From a virus (taxonomy: Duplodnaviria > Heunggongvirae > Uroviricota > Caudoviricetes): 5,560 bases of DNA. The DNA lies in IMG/VR virus record IMGVR_UViG_2534681941_000049, positions 1 through 5,560 of that record; one strand, given 5' to 3'. This document shows positions 1 to 5,560 of the stretch, in pieces (position 1 is the first letter of the stretch; every line of letters starts with the position of its first letter). The position numbers and the translations under genes were made by a program. The notes under the pieces were generated by a model that was not told the DNA's origin, did no database searches, and worked only from the letters and a program-made list of their open reading frames with translations.

Positions 1-114
1 GCGATGCGCCTGCAAGAGGCATCCGGCGGGGAACTTCAGTACGACCCCAAAGTTTATGACGAATATCGTAAGGCAAAGCGGGCGGGGCGGTTGAACAATG
101 AAAATCACCCCTGA
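1..114 (+). CDS. 3' end of an upstream gene (partial, start lies outside the window); product unknown
   Basis: Frame 1 is open from the window edge to TGA at 112-114 (…MRLQEASGGELQYDPKVYDEYRKAKRAGRLNNENHP*). Its end overlaps the ATG at 98 of the next gene, the same compact arrangement seen through the rest of the operon. Too short to assign a family. Confidence 0.3.
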   Translation, partial: AMRLQEASGGELQYDPKVYDEYRKAKRAGRLNNENHP

Positions 115-649
115 ACAGGTTTGTGAGGCTCTGGATGCCTGGGTGTGCCGACCAGGAATGACACAGGAACAGGCGACGATATTAATCACGGAAGCATTCT
201 GGGCTCTGAAAGAACGCCCGAACATCGATGTTCAACGCATCACGTTTAATGATGGCGAGGTTGATCAACGGGCGCTGGGCGTTAACCGGGTGAAGATATT
301 CGAACGCTGGAAAGCTATCGACACCAGAGATAAGCGTGACAAATTCACGGCGCTGATTCCGGCAATTATGGAGGCTATCCGGATCAGCGATTTCAGATTG
401 TATTGTGAAATTACTGACGGAAAAAGCATTACGTACATGATCGCCGGGTTAAACAAAGAATATGGCGATGTGGTGGAGTCCGGGCTGCTTTTTGCGGATC
501 CAGTTGTTGTGGAACGTGAGACTGACGAGCTTATAGAAAAAGCTATTGCTTTCAAGCACGCGTATCGTCAGCAATACCAATATTACTTTGCAGATAAACA
601 AATGTCTGCCAGGGGTTCGTATGAGTATCGATGCACTACGATGGGCTAA
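98..649 (+). CDS. YdaT-family protein (DUF1019-like; CII-like regulator of Rac-type prophages), 183 aa
   Basis: ATG at 98, TAA at 647-649. The N-terminal half (MKITPEQV…AW…; …KIFERWKAIDTRDKRDKFTALIPAIMEAI) matches my recollection of E. coli Rac YdaT (…KIFRWVEKDT…ALLPAIEK…). It sits immediately upstream of the replication initiator, as ydaT/cII does in Rac and lambdoid phages. Family call is from memory, not a search. Confidence 0.7.
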   Translation: MKITPEQVCEALDAWVCRPGMTQEQATILITEAFWALKERPNIDVQRITFNDGEVDQRALGVNRVKIFERWKAIDTRDKRDKFTALIPAIMEAIRISDFRLYCEITDGKSITYMIAGLNKEYGDVVESGLLFADPVVVERETDELIEKAIAFKHAYRQQYQYYFADKQMSARGSYEYRCTTMG

Positions 650-1661
650 AAAGGTGAAAACCGGCAGTTCATCCAGTAAGTCAGTATTGACCTGGCTTGC
701 TGATATGTGCGGTGCCGATTTGTGTGCATACCCGTCTGTATCTGCACTGGCAGAAGTAACGGAACTGAACAAAAAGACTGTGCAGGACAGCTTACGACAC
801 CTGATGGAGATTGGGTTAATTGTTGATACCGGTGAGAGAAAAGGCAGAACAAAGCAAATTGTGGTGTACCGACTTATCGGTGTAGAAGAAAGTGTTGCCG
901 AGCCTGAATACACCCAAAAACGGGTGTCTTTAAAGGTGGGTAAAATTGGTGCTGTTAATAAAAACAGTACCGAAAACGGTTATGTTTCAGCACAAAAGAG
1001 CCCCAAAAACGGAACTCTTTGTTGCATGGAAAATAACCAAAGACACCCAAATTTTCCATCAAAGACACCCAAAAACGGATCACGGAACCCAAAGGAACCC
1101 AAAGATCTAAACCCCACACATAACGCACGCGAGAGTGCTCCGACCAGTGAGCAGGAAGTTTTGTCGTTACAGGCAGCCCCCCATGTATTCCTGGATGGCC
1201 TGAGCGAACCCATCGGAAAATTTCCGATGACCGATAGCTGGTATCCGTCACGGGATTTTCGACGACGGGCTGCGTTGTGGGGGATGGCTTTGCCGGAGAC
1301 AGAATTTACACCTGCTGAACTTACCGCATTCCGGGACTACTGGGCAGCGGAGGGGAAAGTGTTTACGCAGATTCAGTGGGAGCAGAAATTCGCCCGTCAC
1401 GTAAATCACGTCAGGGCGCAGGTTAAACCAGTCAGCAAGGGGGTAAACCATGCAGCAGCACCAGGTGGCACCGCATCACGGGCAGTTCAGGAAATTCGGG
1501 CAGCACGTGAGCAGTGGGAACGTGAAAACGGATTTATCAGCGACGGAAACGGCCTGGAAGCTGTGGGAACTCATGGGGGAGGTTTATTCGAACCGCTGGA
1601 CCCAGAAGAACGGGGCCGCACCTTCGAAGCTCTGGATTGCACAGATTGGCGCGATGACTGA
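621..1661 (+). CDS. Phage replication initiator: N-terminal helix-turn-helix (O-like/HTH_36-type) domain plus C-terminal DnaT-like domain
   Basis: ATG at 621 preceded by AGGGG (611-615); the ORF-track start at 546 is a TTG and is less likely. N-terminus MSIDALRWAKKV…SVLTWLADMC…YPSVSALAEVTELNKKTVQDSLRHLMEIGLI is typical of phage replication-protein HTH domains. The C-terminal part (FPMTDSWYPSRDFRRRAALWGMALPETEFTPAELTAFRDYWAAEGKVFTQIQWEQKFARHV) resembles the DnaT C-terminal domain. A low-complexity P/K/N-rich linker separates them and the protein ends in an acidic tail (…DCTDWRDD). Stop TGA at 1659-1661. Confidence 0.8.
   Translation: MSIDALRWAKKVKTGSSSSKSVLTWLADMCGADLCAYPSVSALAEVTELNKKTVQDSLRHLMEIGLIVDTGERKGRTKQIVVYRLIGVEESVAEPEYTQKRVSLKVGKIGAVNKNSTENGYVSAQKSPKNGTLCCMENNQRHPNFPSKTPKNGSRNPKEPKDLNPTHNARESAPTSEQEVLSLQAAPHVFLDGLSEPIGKFPMTDSWYPSRDFRRRAALWGMALPETEFTPAELTAFRDYWAAEGKVFTQIQWEQKFARHVNHVRAQVKPVSKGVNHAAAPGGTASRAVQEIRAAREQWERENGFISDGNGLEAVGTHGGGLFEPLDPEERGRTFEALDCTDWRDD
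905..1120. repeat. Iteron-like direct repeats inside the initiator gene (putative replication origin)
   Basis: Direct repeats: aaagacacccaaa at 1039-1051 and 1061-1073 (22 bp apart); ggaacccaaag in tandem at 1084-1094 and 1094-1104; cacccaaaaacgg-type copies at 911-923 and 1066-1079, with variants ccccaaaaacgga (1001-1013) and accgaaaacgg (969-979). About seven copies of a (A/C)CCCAAA core in roughly 200 bp, all in the inter-domain linker of the initiator gene. Confidence 0.45.
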
Positions 1662-2115
1662 GCAGCAAATCCGGCAGGTCTGCCGCCAGTGCATGGACCG
1701 CTGCCGGGCGGGTGAAACATGGCCTCCGGACCTGGCTGAGTTTGTGGCACTGATTTCGAAAAGCGGAGCCAATCCATTCGGTCTGACGGTGGATGCTGTG
1801 ATGGAGGAGTACCGCCGCTGGCGCAATGAGTCCTGGCGATACGACGGAAGTGATAAGTACCCGTGGTCTCAGCCTGTGCTGTATCACATTTGCCTCGAGA
1901 TGCGTTCAAAGGGGATTGAGCGCCAGATGACCGAAGGGGAATTAAAACGGCTTGCAGAACGGCAACTGACGAAATGGGCAAAGCATGTTAGTAACGGCCT
2001 GAGCGTTCCGCCAGTACGGCGACAACTGGCGGCACCAAAACGCCCGTTGGGACCAACGCCAATTGAGTTGCTGAAACAGGAGTATGAACGCCGGAAAGCG
2101 GCTGGTTTTGTCTGA
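1450..2115 (+). CDS. Lambda P-like replication protein (replicative helicase loader)
   Basis: ATG at 1450 lies 6 nt after a strong SD AAGGGGG (1437-1443) and directly after an in-frame TAA (1444-1446). Clear similarity to my recollection of lambda P: ours …EFVALISK…[47 protein letters not shown]… versus lambda …GQFVAWCREE…YPWKSNAHYWLVTNLYQNMRANALTDAELRRKAADELVHMTARINRG…. Stop TGA at 2113-2115. Start is uncertain: in-frame alternatives are ATG 1573 and ATG 1654, the latter overlapping the upstream stop by 8 nt. Confidence 0.8.
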
Positions 2116-2149
2116 TTTGAGAAGTAATTTTTATCCGGAGGAAATTTTA

Positions 2150-2920
2150 ATGGGAACCGTATTGCATGCACTGAAAGCGATGGGTAAAGCCAATTCTGTT
2201 GAACTGGCGGCGCGGCTTGATATCAGCCGTGAAGAAGTTCTCAACGAACTGTGGGAACTCAAAAAAAATGGCGTTGTTGATAAAACGGGTCACACCTGGT
2301 TTCTGGCTGGTGAAGGTGAATCCGGGGTAACCGAAGAACAGCCAGCACAGTCTGAAGTACCGGATGTGCTGACCGGGGAGGTCGAACAAAAAGTTACTGC
2401 GGACATGATGATTGAGTTTATCTGTCAGGATGGGGCTAAAACGTGTGAGGAACTGGCGGATAAGTTCGGTGTTAGCATTCGCAAGGTTGCTTCCACGTTG
2501 GCGGTCGTAACAGCAACGGGGAGCCTGGCACGCGTAAATCAGAACGGTAAATTTCGTTACTGCATACCGGGCGCTGATTTACCGGCAGAGCCGGAAGCTG
2601 CATCGGTAACGGAAACCGATGGTAAAGCCTTTCCTCAGCCAACAGGTGTTGCGTTACCAGTCCGGGAAGCGGAAACACAGGAAGAAATAAAAACTGAAAG
2701 TGTGGCGGTCACAGTGCAGTCACAGCCGTTGTTCACCAGAAAACATCCGGATGGTCTGATTTTACCATCGCTGCATGTGGCTAACCGCGAGCTGCGCCGG
2801 GCAAAAGGTCAGGTTCAGAAGTGGGAGCGTGTCTGCGCCGCGCTGCGGGAGCTGAACAAGCACCGGGATATTGTTCGGCAGATTGTCGATTCATCCGGTC
2901 GTATTGTGTCGGAAAAGTGA
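2150..2920 (+). CDS. Tandem winged-helix DNA-binding protein, function unknown (possibly DUF1627-like)
   Basis: ATG at 2150 with GGAGG (2137-2141) 8 nt upstream; the ORF-track start at 2084 falls inside the P-like gene with a poorly spaced SD. Two wHTH-like segments ([28 protein letters not shown]; [32 protein letters not shown]), an acidic linker and a C-terminal coiled-coil-like region ([28 protein letters not shown]). Stop TGA at 2918-2920. Confidence 0.7.
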
Positions 2921-2935
2921 TTGCCGGAGGCGCTT

Positions 2936-3331
2936 ATGGCGAAACCTTTTACACACGAACAGCGTGAAGAACTGAAGGCCCGAATTATCGGGCTGGTACG
3001 CAAAAATGAACGCATGACGATATCACAACTGGAGAGAGCGACGGGAGCAGGCTGGCATTCAGTCAGACGTTGCCTTGTGGATGTACTGGCTTGCGGCGAT
3101 TTATACATGCCCGGTAAATACGGTGTTTTTACATCAGAACAGGTGTATCGCGTATGGCGTAAGGCAGCGGAGAAAACAACCGACCAGACATTGATTCGAA
3201 AGTTACCAGACGGAGAAATACGCCGCTACGACAGACAACAGAACATAATCTGTGGCGAGTGCCGGAAGAGTGAAGTTATGCTGCGTGTACTGGCGTTCTA
3301 TCAGGGCAATTTTCAGGAGGCGGTATTGTGA
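2936..3331 (+). CDS. Hypothetical protein, 131 aa; N-terminal wHTH-like segment and C-terminal CxxC motif
   Basis: ATG at 2936 with GGAGG (2926-2930) 5 nt upstream; the track start at 2921 is TTG. Sequence includes MTISQLERATGAGWHSVRRCLVDVLA (HTH-like) and …NIICGECRK…. Stop TGA at 3329-3331. Confidence 0.65.
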   Translation: MAKPFTHEQREELKARIIGLVRKNERMTISQLERATGAGWHSVRRCLVDVLACGDLYMPGKYGVFTSEQVYRVWRKAAEKTTDQTLIRKLPDGEIRRYDRQQNIICGECRKSEVMLRVLAFYQGNFQEAVL

Positions 3332-3744
3332 GTGAATTAGCTATCAGGCTTCAATTGTCGCTGGCATTCACATCAAAGGAGAAGAGCATGGAAATAAAAC
3401 CAGAAGATGAGTTAAGCAATATCGTTTTATTTCCGGTAAAAGAGGATGACCCACGTAATCAGGTTAATTTTCTTTATGAGCCATCGGAAAGAGCATATTG
3501 TCATCACGCCTCTGTTCGGGTTGACGAAAAAGAGCGTCAGGTCCGCTGTAAAATCTGCGGTGCAGTTGTGGAGCCATTTGACTGGATGCTCTCTGTGGCG
3601 AAAAGAGAAACCAGACTGGCAGATGATGTAAGGATCTTGCGCCAGGAGGAACGGGAAAGGCGGAGAAATATAGAAAAGCTAATTCAGATTGAGCGTAACG
3701 TGAAAGCGCGGATACGCAGGGTGACAAAATCCAGAACTGAATAA
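3328..3744 (+). CDS. Hypothetical zinc-ribbon (C-x-H…C-x2-C) protein with a basic coiled-coil C-terminus
   Basis: GTG at 3328 overlaps the upstream stop (GTGA) with AGGAGG (3315-3320) 7 nt upstream. Alternative start ATG 3388 with AAGGAG (3376-3381) 6 nt upstream; I cannot decide between them. Motif YCHHASVRVDEKERQVRCKICGAV suggests a zinc ribbon; the C-terminus RILRQEERERRRNIEKLIQIERNVKARIRR is basic and helical. Stop TAA at 3742-3744. Confidence 0.65.
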   Translation: MSELAIRLQLSLAFTSKEKSMEIKPEDELSNIVLFPVKEDDPRNQVNFLYEPSERAYCHHASVRVDEKERQVRCKICGAVVEPFDWMLSVAKRETRLADDVRILRQEERERRRNIEKLIQIERNVKARIRRVTKSRTE

Positions 3745-3772
3745 TTAAATTTAGCTCTGTTAAAAATTTAAT
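3744..3772. promoter_or_regulatory. AT-rich inverted repeat in an intergenic region (possible operator or promoter element)
   Basis: ATTAAATTT (3744-3752) and its exact reverse complement AAATTTAAT (3764-3772) flank an 11-bp spacer. It lies between the stop at 3744 and the SD GGAGG (3781-3785) of the next gene. An all-A/T stem is a poor intrinsic terminator, so a protein-binding site or promoter element is more plausible. Confidence 0.2.
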
Positions 3773-3792
3773 CCTTAACCGGAGGTATATCA

Positions 3793-4005
3793 ATGTCAAA
3801 CGCACAGAAAGTTATTAACGCTGAAAAATATAACGAGTGGGTGAAAAAGTTCTCAGAGCAGATTTTTAAAATTACTGGCGACGAGAATGCGGCAAAAAAT
3901 GAATTAGAGCCGTGGACACCTGAAGGTGTCGACCCAAATTATTGCTGGTGGGATGTTGATCCAGTTGATGCTGCAAATGAAGCTATGAGTTATCACAACG
4001 ATTAA
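3793..4005 (+). CDS. Small acidic hypothetical protein, 70 aa
   Basis: ATG at 3793 with GGAGG (3781-3785) 7 nt upstream; stop TAA at 4003-4005. About 14 D/E versus 6 K (net charge about -8); W-rich C-terminal half (PNYCWWDVDPVDAANEA). Confidence 0.6.
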   Translation: MSNAQKVINAEKYNEWVKKFSEQIFKITGDENAAKNELEPWTPEGVDPNYCWWDVDPVDAANEAMSYHND

Positions 4006-4014
4006 TGTCAGGAG

Positions 4015-4032
4015 GCCGCCCGAAAGGGCGGT
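4015..4032 (+). promoter_or_regulatory. GC-rich stem-loop with GAAA tetraloop between the SD and the start codon of the 4041 gene
   Basis: gCCGCCC-GAAA-GGGCGGt: ccgccc (4016-4021) pairs with gggcgg (4026-4031), loop gaaa. It lies immediately after AGGAGG (4010-4015) and 9 nt before GTG 4041. No downstream U-tract, so not a classical terminator. Confidence 0.3.
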
Positions 4033-4040
4033 AATGAAAA

Positions 4041-4412
4041 GTGACTGAATTAACCAAAGAGAAATTAATCGAAGAAGCCAAATTAAAAATAGCGATTGCG
4101 AAATGCTACCCCAATTCAGGGATGGCACGGGTAGAGGGCGAGTTATTCAAAATTGCACTGGCATCGCTGGAAGCAGAACCGATAGCGTGGGAATGCGGTG
4201 AAAACATAATCCTGTTTAACCCTGACACAGTTGAAGCATACGCAAAACGTGCGGAAATATCACCTAAACCACTATTCTCCGCGCCGCCAGCGCTGGTAGT
4301 GCCTGATAAGTTGCCGCGTGAATACAGAAACGGTTGGCCTCTTGCGTATAGTGATTATGCTGAAGGCTGGAACGACTGCCGCGAAGCCATGCTTCAGGGA
4401 GATAAATCATGA
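4041..4412 (+). CDS. Hypothetical protein, 123 aa
   Basis: GTG at 4041 is the only start available after the in-frame TGA at 4035-4037; the next in-frame ATG is at 4122. The nearest SD (AGGAGG 4010-4015) is about 25 nt upstream unless the intervening hairpin shortens the effective spacing. Stop TGA at 4410-4412 overlaps the next start (ATGA). Confidence 0.6.
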   Translation: MTELTKEKLIEEAKLKIAIAKCYPNSGMARVEGELFKIALASLEAEPIAWECGENIILFNPDTVEAYAKRAEISPKPLFSAPPALVVPDKLPREYRNGWPLAYSDYAEGWNDCREAMLQGDKS

Positions 4413-4759
4413 TTAATCGTATCAAGCTGGAGCACATCCTCGAATATGCCAGGCAGCAGAGGCATATTGGTCAGCATTGTAAAATTCCACCAGGAGATAT
4501 GGTTGAAATCATGGAGATTGCCATGCGCAAGGCTGGCAACTCTCCGGTAACTCCGGATGGTTGGATAAGCTGTAGTGAGCGAATGCCGGAGAAATACGAT
4601 TTCGATATCTGGGTATTCTCTCCATCCAGAGGTGTTCTTGACGGGCTACAGTGGGATGGCTCGATGTTTACTGATGATGAATATCAGTTCGTTATTCATG
4701 ACGCCACGCATTGGATGAGAAAAGTATATCCAGCAGCACCGCAGCAGGATGGTGAATGA
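4409..4759 (+). CDS. DUF551-like phage protein, 116 aa
   Basis: ATG at 4409 with GGGAGA (4397-4402) 6 nt upstream, overlapping the upstream stop. Motif GWISCSERMPEKYDFDIWVF…DATHWMRKVYPAAP resembles the DUF551 pattern as I recall it (W-I-x-V-x-D-R-L-P-E … T-H-W-M-P-L-P). Confidence 0.7.
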   Translation: MINRIKLEHILEYARQQRHIGQHCKIPPGDMVEIMEIAMRKAGNSPVTPDGWISCSERMPEKYDFDIWVFSPSRGVLDGLQWDGSMFTDDEYQFVIHDATHWMRKVYPAAPQQDGE

Positions 4760-4845
4760 TGCCGCCAGTTAAAGTTGTGATTATCACTTTGGTGATGATA
4801 GTGATTGCGAGAATCATGTCTGGTGAAATTGTGTGGATATGGTAA
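4756..4845 (+). CDS. Small hydrophobic peptide ORF, 29 aa, predicted single transmembrane helix (not in the ORF track)
   Basis: ATG at 4756 overlaps the DUF551 stop TGA 4757-4759 (ATGA coupling); a second in-frame ATG is at 4759. Translation: MMPPVKVVIITLVMIVIARIMSGEIVWIW, stop TAA at 4843-4845. Weak SD-like CAGGAT/GGTGA just upstream. Followed within about 35 nt by terminator hairpins. Confidence 0.4.
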   Translation: MMPPVKVVIITLVMIVIARIMSGEIVWIW

Positions 4846-4878
4846 TGGCTAAGGCAGCAGCAGAGCGCAACTAACAAT

Positions 4879-4907
4879 CCTCGCACTCGCGGGGATTTCT
4901 TTTATCT
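4879..4907 (+). terminator. Putative intrinsic terminator (first of a tandem pair)
   Basis: cctcgc (4879-4884) pairs with gcgggg (4889-4894), including one G-U pair, loop acuc; followed by ATTTCTTTTATCT (4895-4907). Confidence 0.4.
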
Positions 4908-4908
4908 G

Positions 4909-4933
4909 AACTCGCTACGGCGAGTTTTGTTTT
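4909..4933 (+). terminator. Putative intrinsic (rho-independent) terminator
   Basis: Perfect 7-bp stem AACTCGC (4909-4915) / GCGAGTT (4920-4926) with loop TACG, followed by the T-tract TTTTGTTTT (4925-4933). Confidence 0.6.
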
Positions 4934-4946
4934 ATGGAGACAAGAA

Positions 4947-5291
4947 ATGTCAGATTTGGCTATGAAGGTTTTGAAATGGCAATCAACTGGCGATGTCGGC
5001 ATCAGTAGCGCAACTCTTGCCTCAATCGCATGTGGCCTGAAAAAGAATATCTATGGTCATGGCTTCGGTGCTCCACATGACGCAGCCGATTTCAGACGAT
5101 GCGTTGCACTTGTTGAGCAGATTCCAGAAATCAGAGATTCATTCGACAAGGTTGCAAAGCGCGTTCCGGCATTCAAAGGAATCCTCAACGAATGGGATTC
5201 CCTCGTTGCTCTGTTGAAGTCTGAAATGAAGATACACGGAAACAAAGCACCAGAGACTTACAGAAGAATCAGCGAGCTACGCAAGGACTAA
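4947..5291 (+). CDS. Hypothetical protein, 114 aa; moron-like gene bracketed by terminators
   Basis: ATG at 4947 with GGAGA (4936-4940) 6 nt upstream; stop TAA at 5289-5291. No family recognised (MSDLAMKVLKWQSTGDVGISSATLASIACGLKKNIYGHGFGAPHDAADFRRCVALVEQIPEIR…). Confidence 0.65.
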   Translation: MSDLAMKVLKWQSTGDVGISSATLASIACGLKKNIYGHGFGAPHDAADFRRCVALVEQIPEIRDSFDKVAKRVPAFKGILNEWDSLVALLKSEMKIHGNKAPETYRRISELRKD

Positions 5292-5328
5292 CGCCTCACA
5301 CTCGATGAGGCCTGTTCATATCTGATAG

Positions 5329-5353
5329 AGCCGCTATATGGCGGTTTCTTTTT
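5329..5353 (+). terminator. Putative intrinsic terminator downstream of the 114-aa gene
   Basis: Stem agccgc (5329-5334) / gcgguu (5341-5346), loop tatatg, followed by TTTCTTTTT (to 5353). A second perfect hairpin gcctca-cactcga-tgaggc (5293-5311) lies just upstream but lacks a U-tract. Confidence 0.5.
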
Positions 5354-5368
5354 GCCTGGAGAATTAAG

Positions 5369-5560
5369 ATGACCGATACCAGCCTGATTCCTGAGAAAGA
5401 AGTGATGAACAAGCTCGGTGTTTCATCACGTCAGACAATCTGGAACTATACCAAACGGCACGGATTTCCGAAGCCAGTCAGAACCCACCCCAAATCATAC
5501 CTTCGTGAAGCTGTTGAAGGGTGGATTCTTAACGGTGGCGTTAATCAGAAATGCTCCTGA
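5369..5560 (+). CDS. alpA: AlpA-family (Phage_AlpA / excisionase-like HTH) transcriptional regulator, 63 aa
   Basis: ATG at 5369 with GGAGA (5358-5362) 6 nt upstream; stop TGA at 5558-5560 at the window end. Sequence LIPEKEVMNKLGVSSRQTIWNYTKRHGFPKPVRTHPKSYLREAVEGWI has the AlpA-family signature (…L…R.TIY…K.G.FPKPV…G…W…EV..WI). Confidence 0.85.
   Translation: MTDTSLIPEKEVMNKLGVSSRQTIWNYTKRHGFPKPVRTHPKSYLREAVEGWILNGGVNQKCS

Follow-up and report, generated by a model that had tools for sequence, protein, structure and literature searches.

Genes and features of the 3793-5291 block

The block analyzed in this study occupies positions 3793-5291 of a 5,560-nt stretch of phage DNA, below referred to as the window. 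It was originally predicted to be an AT-rich accessory block of five small genes of unknown function lying between replication genes and an AlpA regulator. All five open reading frames (ORFs) are present at the predicted positions; four of them are annotated coding sequences in RefSeq relatives, while the fifth, encoding 29 amino acids, is a putative gene. The ORFs and the neighboring features are as follows.

3328..3744, + strand: gene of a Zn-ribbon protein, outside the block (phrog_1621, E 8e-54; weak zinc-ribbon Pfam match)
3745..3792, no strand: AT-rich spacer (GC 0.27), holding a mosaic boundary at about 3785 and the ribosome-binding site of the 70-aa gene
3793..4005, + strand: gene of a 70-aa acidic protein (WP_000063625.1; phrog_4659, E 4e-50, unknown function)
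4015..4032, + strand: GC-rich hairpin with no T-run between the 70-aa and 123-aa genes (dG -16.9 kcal/mol, z -3.9 versus shuffles)
4041..4412, + strand: gene of a 123-aa protein, GTG start (WP_000137941.1; phrog_5117/660/60), homologue of the N-terminal half of the P22-type EaA
4150..4588, + strand: 439-bp module common to both parent prophages, recombination joint (from matches of 1-4588 to the Rac-like and of 4150-5560 to the sbcB prophage)
4409..4759, + strand: gene of a 116-aa DUF551 protein (WP_000610373.1), homologue of the C-terminal half of the P22-type EaA
4756..4845, + strand: hydrophobic 29-aa ORF overlapping the DUF551 stop codon (ATGA), unannotated by PGAP in the RefSeq records inspected and called by some gene callers only
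4876..4936, + strand: two tandem intrinsic-terminator-like hairpins with T-runs, on mosaic boundaries (dG -13.1 and -11.9 kcal/mol; z -5.7 and -4.2)
4947..5291, + strand: gene of a 114-aa basic all-helical protein (WP_001281188.1; pI 9.2), the last gene before xis/int
5328..5356, + strand: weaker terminator-like hairpin with a T-run, upstream of the excisionase gene (dG -10.5 kcal/mol, z -1.6)
5369..5560, + strand: gene of a 63-aa HTH protein of the AlpA/Xis type, the excisionase of a 2851/sbcB-type integration module (PHROG 66, "excisionase and transcriptional regulator", E 1.9e-8)
5541..5560, - strand: last 20 nt of the convergent integrase gene, overlapping the 3' end of the excisionase gene (position from the layout of coding sequences in L002)

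The GC content of the block is 0.460 versus 0.505 for positions 1-3744, but the predicted AT-richness from about 3745 onward holds weakly, for positions 3745-4050 (0.399), whereas the rest of the block, at about 0.47, equals the segments 1-1050 (0.472) and 3001-3744 (0.466). As many as 23% of all 1,499-bp segments of the window are at least as AT-rich as the block, and the most AT-rich of them begins at 3308, not at 3745. The real contrast is formed by a GC-rich stretch at 1051-3000 (0.537) and one short AT-rich patch, that is, the 48-bp spacer at 3745-3792 together with the 70-aa gene (0.40). A single AT-rich, horizontally acquired island was considered and rejected, since the 4051-5560 segment (0.469) is similar to the flanks and only 3745-4050 is clearly low. 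The Rfam search of the whole window at E<=1 gave no RNA family match.

The gene to the right of the block encodes an AlpA/Xis-type HTH protein, as proposed, but its score of 17.8 bits against the Pfam family Phage_AlpA is below the cut-off of 21. It is better called a prophage excisionase, because it matches PHROG 66, because gp26 of mEp234 is annotated as similar to the phi24B excisionase, and because the gene overlaps the 3' end of a convergent tyrosine integrase gene in all relatives, where attP or sbcB follows. For instance, in L002 the integrase coding sequence 10392-11570 (minus strand) overlaps the HTH coding sequence 10220-10411, and window position 5560 corresponds to position 10411. 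In contrast to the five block products, this protein has a PADLOC match, to the generic model mad1 (E 3.7e-4).

Parental prophages and the joint at 4150-4588

The window combines sequences of two prophage types. Positions 1-4588 correspond to the rightward early operon of a DicA/DicC Rac-like prophage and were found by megablast in 15 complete genomes at 99.1-99.8% identity; to the left of 4150, the genes follow in the order cro/dicC, YdaT, O-like, P, DUF1627, DUF977, Zn-ribbon, 70 aa, 123 aa. Positions 4150-5560 match, at 100% identity, the terminal part of the leftward early operon in sbcB-integrated Stx2c phages (1717/2851 type), immediately ahead of the excisionase and integrase genes, and contain, to the right of 4588, the DUF551 core, the 114-aa gene, the excisionase gene, and the convergent integrase gene. 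The same O157:H7 genomes hold both segments, the second one at 100% identity and at a different locus (megablast), and look-ups of the exact DUF551, YdaT, and O-like proteins, which covered the longest contigs, gave parental contexts only. Further, in every complete relative the 4150-5291 segment lies in a leftward operon between recombination genes and xis/int, whereas here the upstream genes are the replication genes of the other prophage, and the 70-aa gene and the leader part of the 123-aa gene come from a rightward operon.

The edges of the 439-bp shared module coincide with the codons for KIALASLEAEP at its start and GWISCSERMP at its end. The sole base in this module that discriminates between the parents, at position 4540, is of the sbcB type, and therefore the crossover is placed within 4150-4539; other prophages break at 4177 and at 4588-4593.

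The join is carried by none of the 5,426 complete E. coli genomes. Coverage of positions 4000-4800 never exceeds 81% in any complete genome, no genome covers at least 80% of 3745-5560, and a junction-spanning pattern had 0 matches in IMG/VR, the GTDB species genomes, and the JGI metagenomes. Accordingly, we regard it as a chimera of the assembly or as a rare product of recombination between prophages. The layout on which the original prediction was built, with replication genes at one end and AlpA at the other, is likewise absent from complete genomes, so the argument from position rests on a hybrid or chimeric join. Every complete genome that contains both parents has its two copies of the shared module as direct repeats, separated by about 970 kb, and thus a simple crossover would delete approximately 970 kb around the terminus. 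We take such a deletion to be implausible given the essential genes located there, which favors a less simple event or an assembly artifact.

The best explanation as a whole is that the block probably straddles a homologous-recombination joint between two prophage types and is not the single cargo unit that had been envisaged: the part up to 4149 belongs to the post-replication region of the Rac-like prophage, and from 4589 on the DNA is that of the exo-xis ("ea") end of the Stx2c-type leftward operon. In vivo, the join would arise by prophage-prophage recombination or, alternatively, by a circular Stx2c-type genome integrating through homology into a Rac-like prophage already resident; in silico, it would be a mis-join at a 390-bp exact repeat. 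The data are compatible with each of these routes.

The chance of the in silico origin, in which a short-read assembler walked from the Rac-like into the Stx2c-type sequence through the 390-bp repeat, is considerable, though somewhat short of even; the block would then never have been contiguous DNA, and its halves would belong to two separate ordinary prophages. The absence of the join from all four collections is consistent with such a chimera, as are the coexistence of both parental sequences in the same O157:H7 genomes, where the simple in vivo product is a huge deletion, the identity of each side to a parental type up to the repeat (100% or 99.98%), and the length of most public contigs with the left-hand genes, which at only 5-10 kb indicates that the region is usually fragmented at repeats. 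However, repeat-aware assemblers tend to halt when they reach a repeat of this kind, complete genomes often show in-frame exchanges at precisely these joints, and the left half of the window is closest to contigs from outside the O157 clade (L016, L019). A recombinant origin also agrees with the documented role of PhiStx2c as an in vivo hotspot of recombination with other prophages in O157:H7 (PMC8743559) and with the prophage-prophage recombination documented in O157 (PMC2669165). The join bears both on the rearrangement of Stx2c prophages and on the reading of STEC draft assemblies.

The genes of the block are exchanged as cassettes. Cassette boundaries were found at 2872, 3785, 4150, 4177, 4588-4593, 4872-4874, 4930/4949, and 5323. 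For instance, the match to the O103:H2 12009-type prophages ends at 3785 and is followed by different cargo, and the homology to mEp234, HK022, E212, and the Stx1/Stx2a phages begins at 4872-4874 or at 4930. Many prophages swap modules in frame at the joints IALASLEAEP and GWISCSERMP, and DUF551 is shuffled even within its coding sequence: among 107 DUF551 proteins, 21 N-modules and 19 cores occur in 37 combinations, the leader of the window protein being paired with 17 cores and its core with 18 leaders. A combination of the reciprocal type is present in three complete genomes. The window itself starts 24 nt inside a mosaic boundary in the immunity region.

The slot after the Zn-ribbon gene also varies in Rac-like relatives between the conserved flanks DUF1627/DUF977 (upstream) and hokD, DUF968, RusA, and Q (downstream). 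It may contain DUF7167 with a PP2C phosphatase and a Ser/Thr kinase, ORF6N with a RelE/HTH toxin-antitoxin pair, or DUF4406 with an Ea22-like gene. The view of these genes as mosaic, non-core early genes with no assigned function is thus borne out: their content differs between relatives, and no protein falls into a characterized housekeeping family. The Zn-ribbon gene, a 138-aa ORF annotated in RefSeq as a 118-aa form starting at 3388, travels as a pair with the 70-aa gene, and the same pair occurs at 92% identity among the Ea22-like genes in the leftward operon of the Stx2a phage ArgO145.

Gene families of the block and their probable roles

Annotation of the third gene as DUF551-like was confirmed by a match to PF04448 (residues 51-104; 40.6 bits versus a cut-off of 22); its product consists of a leader (residues 1-59) and a small beta-rich core (residues 60-116). 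By sequence similarity, the 123-aa and 116-aa genes are the two halves of a homologue of P22 EaA. In the comparison, which was made with the P22-like phage SPN9CC rather than with P22, the 123-aa product aligned with residues 1-82 of eaa (BLASTP, E 7e-10) and the 116-aa product with residues 109-222 (E 3e-14). In support of this assignment, a UniRef cluster 96% identical to the 123-aa protein is named "Eaa protein", 215-aa fusions with DUF551 occur, and the annotators of HK022 used the names "P22 EaA C-term half" and "N15 early protein homolog" for genes in the same order. The stop codon of the 123-aa gene (4410-4412) overlaps the ATG of the DUF551 gene (ATGA at 4409-4412). The 123-aa protein is 78% identical to the product of a 118-aa gene of the sbcB prophage, and all differences are in the first 36 residues. 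A relationship of the 123-aa protein to Ea22 was rejected, as PF13935 was matched by none of the five products at E<=0.1 and no PDB match was found.

The 70-aa protein (pI 4.4, net charge about -8) has no match in Pfam, NCBIfam, PADLOC, or PDB. For the 29-aa ORF, which is open in phage E212 with three of the three differences there being non-synonymous, no family match was found in Pfam or PHROGs. Searches of all five products in Pfam, NCBIfam, and PADLOC gave nothing but DUF551, PHROGs returned only families of unknown function, and the PDB sequence search with four products yielded nothing below E 0.3.

The suggestion that the block may hold something undescribed was not upheld, as counterparts of every gene, at 99-100% identity, occur in published phages (1717, 2851, mEp234, HK022, and ArgO145) and across hundreds to thousands of E. 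coli genomes, the identity to phages 1717 and 2851, beside int, being 99.9%, and two of the genes are halves of the P22 EaA homologue. The genes are widely known and uncharacterized, and the block is ordinary apart from the join and the 114-aa family. Probably, it is a chain of independently exchangeable, non-essential early genes of lambdoid phages, of the "ea"/exo-xis type. On the + strand, the only sigma-70-like promoter match upstream of the genes is a weak site inside the 70-aa gene, and we therefore infer the route of expression from the operon position: the genes would be transcribed with the delayed-early operons, in the Stx2c-type parent from pL, and antiterminated polymerase would read through the hairpins at 4876-4936 and 5328-5356. 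By analogy with the neighboring exo-xis genes, the small acidic or helical products would bind host or phage proteins, tuning host physiology, the lysis-lysogeny decision, and excision, and we infer for them a role of non-essential early modulators. Effects on host physiology and on lysis-lysogeny or excision have reportedly been shown for the exo-xis genes ea22, orf60a, orf61, orf63, and orf73.

The 114-aa gene does not fit the variable-cargo position ascribed to the block, since at least five phage groups carry it at the same place in the leftward operon, as the last gene ahead of xis/int. The gene order is shared by HK022, mEp234, the P22-like SPN9CC (eai-eaa-homologue-int), and Citrobacter prophages. 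The protein belongs to a large family for which there is no Pfam model; its fold is predicted with very high confidence and has no solved structural relative, and the residues G18, S20, P43, D45, D48, C52, and W83 are invariant. Homologues also occur in unrelated phages of Vibrio, Arthrobacter, Clavibacter, and Pseudomonas. As some homologues come from phage records in which no integrase is seen close to the gene (Bas82, 60-kb Vibrio phages), the role of this family is not tied to excision, and the candidate function of an excision cofactor is weakened. Possibly, the 114-aa protein stands for a large phage family not described before, with a novel fold and a motif suggestive of an enzyme or of ligand binding, acting as a general host-takeover or counter-defense factor, and the join may be a genuine new hybrid element produced by recombination of a Stx2c-type phage into a resident Rac-like prophage via the 439-bp coding module; these two proposals taken jointly are rather unlikely. 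Structural and functional studies of early phage genes would do well to include the 114-aa family.

Two further explanations of the block or of its parts compete with the modulator role. Anti-defense or superinfection-exclusion cargo, with the acidic 70-, 123-, and 116-aa proteins as mimics of DNA or proteins or with the 114-aa protein as an enzyme-like counter-defense factor, is improbable. It draws on the kinase/phosphatase or RelE/HTH toxin-antitoxin content of the same slot in related Rac-like prophages and on the acidity of three products (pI 4.4-5.3). DUF551, a portable domain, is fused in some proteins to MazG-like dATP/dGTP pyrophosphohydrolase domains, and such an enzyme has been linked to restriction evasion (PMC10834534), but many of these fusions are singleton database proteins, possibly recombinants or artifacts. 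The 114-aa family, with its invariant S/D/D/C residues, is found in early regions of temperate phages as well as in the records with no integrase near the gene, and in Vibrio phage D80 a Lar-like restriction-alleviation gene is located 2 kb away. However, no structural match to known anti-restriction or anti-CRISPR folds was observed, and none of the five products matched any defense model of PADLOC at E<=0.1, which speaks against the cargo role considered originally. The Rac-like slot, in view of its content in other strains, is a reasonable site to seek defense genes, whereas the content described here shows none.

The other explanation treats the 114-aa gene as a self-contained moron that has its own promoter, is bracketed by terminators, and benefits the host through expression while the prophage is repressed. 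Terminator-like hairpins are indeed located directly upstream (4876-4936) and downstream (5328-5356) of the gene, and homology starts exactly at 4872-4874 in several phages and ends at 5323 in HK022, indicating that the gene moves as a unit. Nevertheless, we consider this explanation very improbable, as the interval from the upstream terminators to the start codon of the 114-aa gene yielded no sigma-70-like promoter, its GC content (0.467) equals that of the surroundings, and it is fixed before xis/int in the leftward operons of those at least five phage groups.

Comparison with known phage regions and rearrangements

As in the prophage rearrangements described in O157:H7, PhiStx2c sequence is joined here to another lambdoid prophage via short identity (compare the PhiStx2c-bounded inversions and duplications in PMC8743559 and the recombinants in PMC2669165). 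In contrast to them, the boundary homology is 439 bp instead of the published at least 5 kb, the join comes from assembled sequence, and recombination between the modules as they are oriented in known genomes would delete the DNA between them instead of inverting it.

The Rac-like parent has the 70-aa, 123-aa, and DUF551 genes between its replication genes and hokD, DUF968, RusA, and Q, an arrangement resembling the nin-like P-Q region of Rac-like and lambdoid prophages. However, the same cassettes are present in leftward operons and thus are not specific to the nin-like region; the P-Q position applies only to the left part and only to this parent, and no Pfam or NCBIfam match to the lambda nin gene families (NinB-NinH or related) was found.

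The right half resembles the exo-xis region, whose ea genes have been studied in expression and phage-development assays (PMC3824215, PMC7093339). In all complete relatives it is downstream of DUF1317, DUF1382, a 71-aa gene, TraR/DksA, and an Ea22-like gene, and directly upstream of xis/int, and it corresponds to the "variable set of downstream genes" described after the conserved exo-xis block (PMC8614690), consisting of small, mosaic, non-essential genes. The five proteins had no Pfam Ead_Ea22 match and no PDB sequence match to the Ea22 C-terminal domain, Ea8.5, or Orf63, and here, unlike in the exo-xis region, the block follows replication genes and not exo/bet.

Finally, the pair of 123-aa and DUF551 genes differs from eaA (Eaa) of the P22 "ea" region in being split into two translationally coupled genes instead of encoding one polypeptide, and its DUF551 core is a variant with about 36% identity. 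Nonetheless, both halves align with SPN9CC eaa, and the order eaa, 114-aa homologue, int is the same in both cases.

Genes and composition of the block

The window comes from the early region of an E. coli lambdoid prophage. Each of the five small ORFs of the original prediction was found in the block (3793-5291), and four of them (70, 123, 116, and 114 aa) are annotated CDSs in RefSeq relatives.

Features of the block and its right flank (window coordinates)
3793-4005, 70-aa ORF, annotated in RefSeq relatives
4041-4412, 123-aa ORF, GTG start, annotated in RefSeq relatives
4409-4759, DUF551 protein, 116 aa, annotated in RefSeq relatives
4756-4845, 29-aa hydrophobic ORF, overlapping the DUF551 stop codon
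4876-4936, tandem terminator-like hairpins with T-runs, dG -13.1 and -11.9 kcal/mol, z -5.7 and -4.2
4947-5291, 114-aa ORF, annotated in RefSeq relatives
5328-5356, weaker terminator-like hairpin

The 29-aa ORF, which has no PGAP annotation in the RefSeq records inspected and is called by some pipelines only, is unproven as a real gene; it is open in phage E212, where three of three differences are non-synonymous. The 70-aa protein is acidic (pI 4.4), and its sole family match is a PHROG of unknown function. No block product has a match in NCBIfam or PADLOC, and the four searched against PDB sequences gave none.

The observation of an AT-rich block stands in its gene content and is weak in its composition. 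Low GC is limited to the spacer 3745-3792 and the 70-aa gene (0.399 in 3745-4050, against 0.537 in 1051-3000 and 0.466 in 3001-3744), whereas the remainder does not stand out: GC is 0.469 in 4051-5560 versus 0.472 in 1-1050, and 23% of all equal-length windows are as AT-rich as the block or more.

Two parental prophages and the join between them

In a megablast search of 5,426 complete E. coli genomes, window 1-4588 was matched at 99.1-99.8% in 15 genomes, and 4150-5560 at 100% in many O157:H7 genomes, at another locus of the same chromosomes. The left part lies in EC4115 at 1.74 Mb, within the rightward operon of a DicA/DicC Rac-like prophage, whose gene order is repeated in a second annotated relative. 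The right part lies at 2.72 Mb, at the leftward operon end of an sbcB-integrated prophage, and shares 99.9% identity with Stx2c phages 1717 and 2851.

Gene order at the two parental loci
Rac-like: cro, YdaT, O-like, P, DUF1627, DUF977, Zn-ribbon, 70 aa, 123 aa, 120-aa DUF551, hokD, DUF968, RusA, Q
sbcB: cIII, kil, gam, bet, exo, DUF1317, DUF1382, TraR/DksA, Ea22-like, 118 aa, 116-aa DUF551, 114 aa, 63-aa HTH, convergent integrase, sbcB

At the base level, the region common to both parents is exactly 4150-4588. Two contigs (L016 and L019) are identical to the window's left part except at position 4540, where the window has the sbcB-type base; hence the crossover falls within 4150-4539. Composition and this two-parent join speak against a single acquired AT-rich island. 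Nor is the placement between replication genes and an AlpA regulator a natural one, since the halves come from two prophage types and are joined in no complete genome. The block had also been proposed as the best candidate for any undescribed content in the window, but each of its parts has a 99-100% identical counterpart in known prophage DNA.

The window starts inside the cro/dicC gene (1-114; compared with L016 9200-9904), and 24 nt to the left of this start the alignment of two immunity types, DicA/DicC versus another Cro/CI pair, ends. The window end is exactly the stop codon of the excisionase gene. Compared with the O157:H7 Rac-like copies, 39 of 40 differences fall in two patches (145-683 and 1749-1965; 23 sites in YdaT/O-like, 16 in P), where L016 and L019 are identical to the window; this clustering looks like patchy gene conversion between prophages.

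Among the complete genomes none spans the join (best coverage of 4000-4800, 81%), and no site covers 80% of 3745-5560. A join-spanning pattern was absent from IMG/VR, the GTDB species genomes, and the JGI metagenomes, and exact look-ups of the window's DUF551, YdaT, and O-like proteins (longest contigs) returned parental contexts only. The shared modules lie in direct orientation about 970 kb apart in every complete genome with both parents, so a simple crossover would delete the terminus region; given the essential genes located there, such an origin of the join seems implausible. It is quite possible that the join is an assembly chimera: draft assemblies are usually fragmented in this region, and the join carries a 390-bp exact repeat, a classic kind of mis-join site. 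However, the same junction would arise in vivo through homologous insertion of a circular Stx2c-type genome into a Rac-like prophage already present, or in a strain whose prophages are laid out differently. Published work identifies PhiStx2c as a hotspot at which recombination with other prophages occurs (PMC8743559), and recombinants between prophages have been documented in O157 (PMC2669165).

Cassette exchange and expression signals

The proposal of mosaic accessory DNA is borne out by the exchange of modules, cores, and slot contents among prophages. The shared 439 bp start at the KIALASLEAEP codons of the 123-aa gene and end at the GWISCSERMP codons of the DUF551 gene; breakpoints of other prophages lie at 4177 and 4588-4593. 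Both stretches (4150-4180 and 4560-4588) are general in-frame exchange joints. The 107 DUF551 proteins related to that of the window combine 21 N-terminal modules with 19 cores in 37 different ways; the window's leader occurs with 17 different cores and its core with 18 leaders, among them Ea22 coiled coils and MazG-like domains. A reciprocal-type combination (118-aa leader, Rac-type core) was found in three complete genomes, within an sbcB prophage in which extra cargo (a 242-aa protein and Ant) also separates DUF551 from the 114-aa gene. Further cassette boundaries are at 2872, 3785, 4872-4874, 4930/4949, and 5323. In the sbcB prophage of O157:H7 F8798 (L055 5516-7410), genes for a 242-aa hypothetical protein, the antirepressor Ant, and a 55-aa hypothetical protein are inserted between these two genes, where the window has the 29-aa ORF and tandem hairpins.

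The 123-aa and 116-aa proteins are similar to the eaa product of P22-like SPN9CC (E 7e-10 and 3e-14, respectively) and are the two halves of a P22-type EaA homologue. The UniRef name in use is 'Eaa protein', fused 215-aa forms exist, and annotators of HK022 drew the same link.

The slot after the Zn-ribbon gene differs in content among Rac-like relatives and is a variable cargo site, which may hold defence-type genes in other strains.

Slot contents in Rac-like relatives
O103:H2 12009 (L053 7340-9267): DUF7167, with PP2C phosphatase and Ser/Thr kinase on the opposite strand
Other relatives: ORF6N and a RelE/HTH toxin-antitoxin pair
Further content: DUF4406 and Ea22-like

The Zn-ribbon and 70-aa genes travel as a pair, in rightward operons and in the leftward operon of Stx2a phage ArgO145; therefore, cassettes move between both early operons. 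The Zn-ribbon protein (3328-3744; 138 aa) has four Cys (residues 58, 73, 76, 78) and a weak TFIIB-type zinc-ribbon match. The DUF1627 protein (2084-2920) has weak matches to many winged-helix/HTH families in two N-terminal stretches (residues ~19-72 and ~108-159) and may bind DNA; the DUF1627 match itself (residues 113-267) begins within the second stretch. The boundary at 2872 is near the 3' end of its gene.

The terminator-like hairpins fall on cassette boundaries, and in the Stx2c-type parent the same hairpins lie inside the leftward operon. By analogy with the lambda tL terminators, transcription reaching the 114-aa gene and xis would be antiterminated only. The window scan gave no convincing promoter upstream of the block genes and no Rfam family. 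The hairpin and ribosome-binding-site linker before the 114-aa gene (4874-4949) recurs upstream of other small genes (HK022, L034 3192-3267 and 3440-3460; E212, L036 1897-1916 and 2090-2109). E212 carries an inserted 168-bp gene flanked on each side by a copy of 20 bp from this linker (4930-4949), an arrangement that suggests linker-mediated cassette insertion.

The 114-aa family and predicted roles

The 114-aa protein is the most interesting block component. Its family counts 1,884 cluster representatives at E<=1e-3 and has no Pfam model (relevant-family matches in none of 104 members). Its gene is the last before xis/int in Stx2c phages, mEp234, HK022, P22-like SPN9CC, and Citrobacter prophages, the latter with different integrases. 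Homologues also occur in an Arthrobacter phage and in early regions of phage records showing no nearby integrase (Bas82, 60-kb Vibrio phages); thus the role of the protein is not tied to excision. Five singleton database proteins (P0015, P0017, P0031, P0035, P0053) join parts of it to fragments of ERF, Kil, Ea22, or MazG-like proteins; they are either genuine recombinants of a hyper-mosaic region or artefacts of assembly or gene calling. The 63-aa neighbour, originally called an AlpA regulator, scores below the Pfam AlpA cut-off and is best interpreted as the excisionase belonging to the 2851/sbcB-type integration module. The points still of interest are the putative hybrid join and the well-folded 114-aa family with no Pfam model.

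The comparisons establish the identity, position, mosaic structure, and family membership of the block genes. A defence or anti-defence function of their products is unlikely, and nothing in this analysis supports it. We suggest that the genes would be non-essential and delayed-early, and that their small products would, by analogy, bind host or phage proteins, tuning host physiology and the lysis-lysogeny and excision decision. [quoted passage not shown] The right half of the block corresponds to what has been called the 'variable set of downstream genes', located from ea22 to xis in the exo-xis region (PMC8614690), and its left half occupies a nin-like variable slot of Rac-like prophages.
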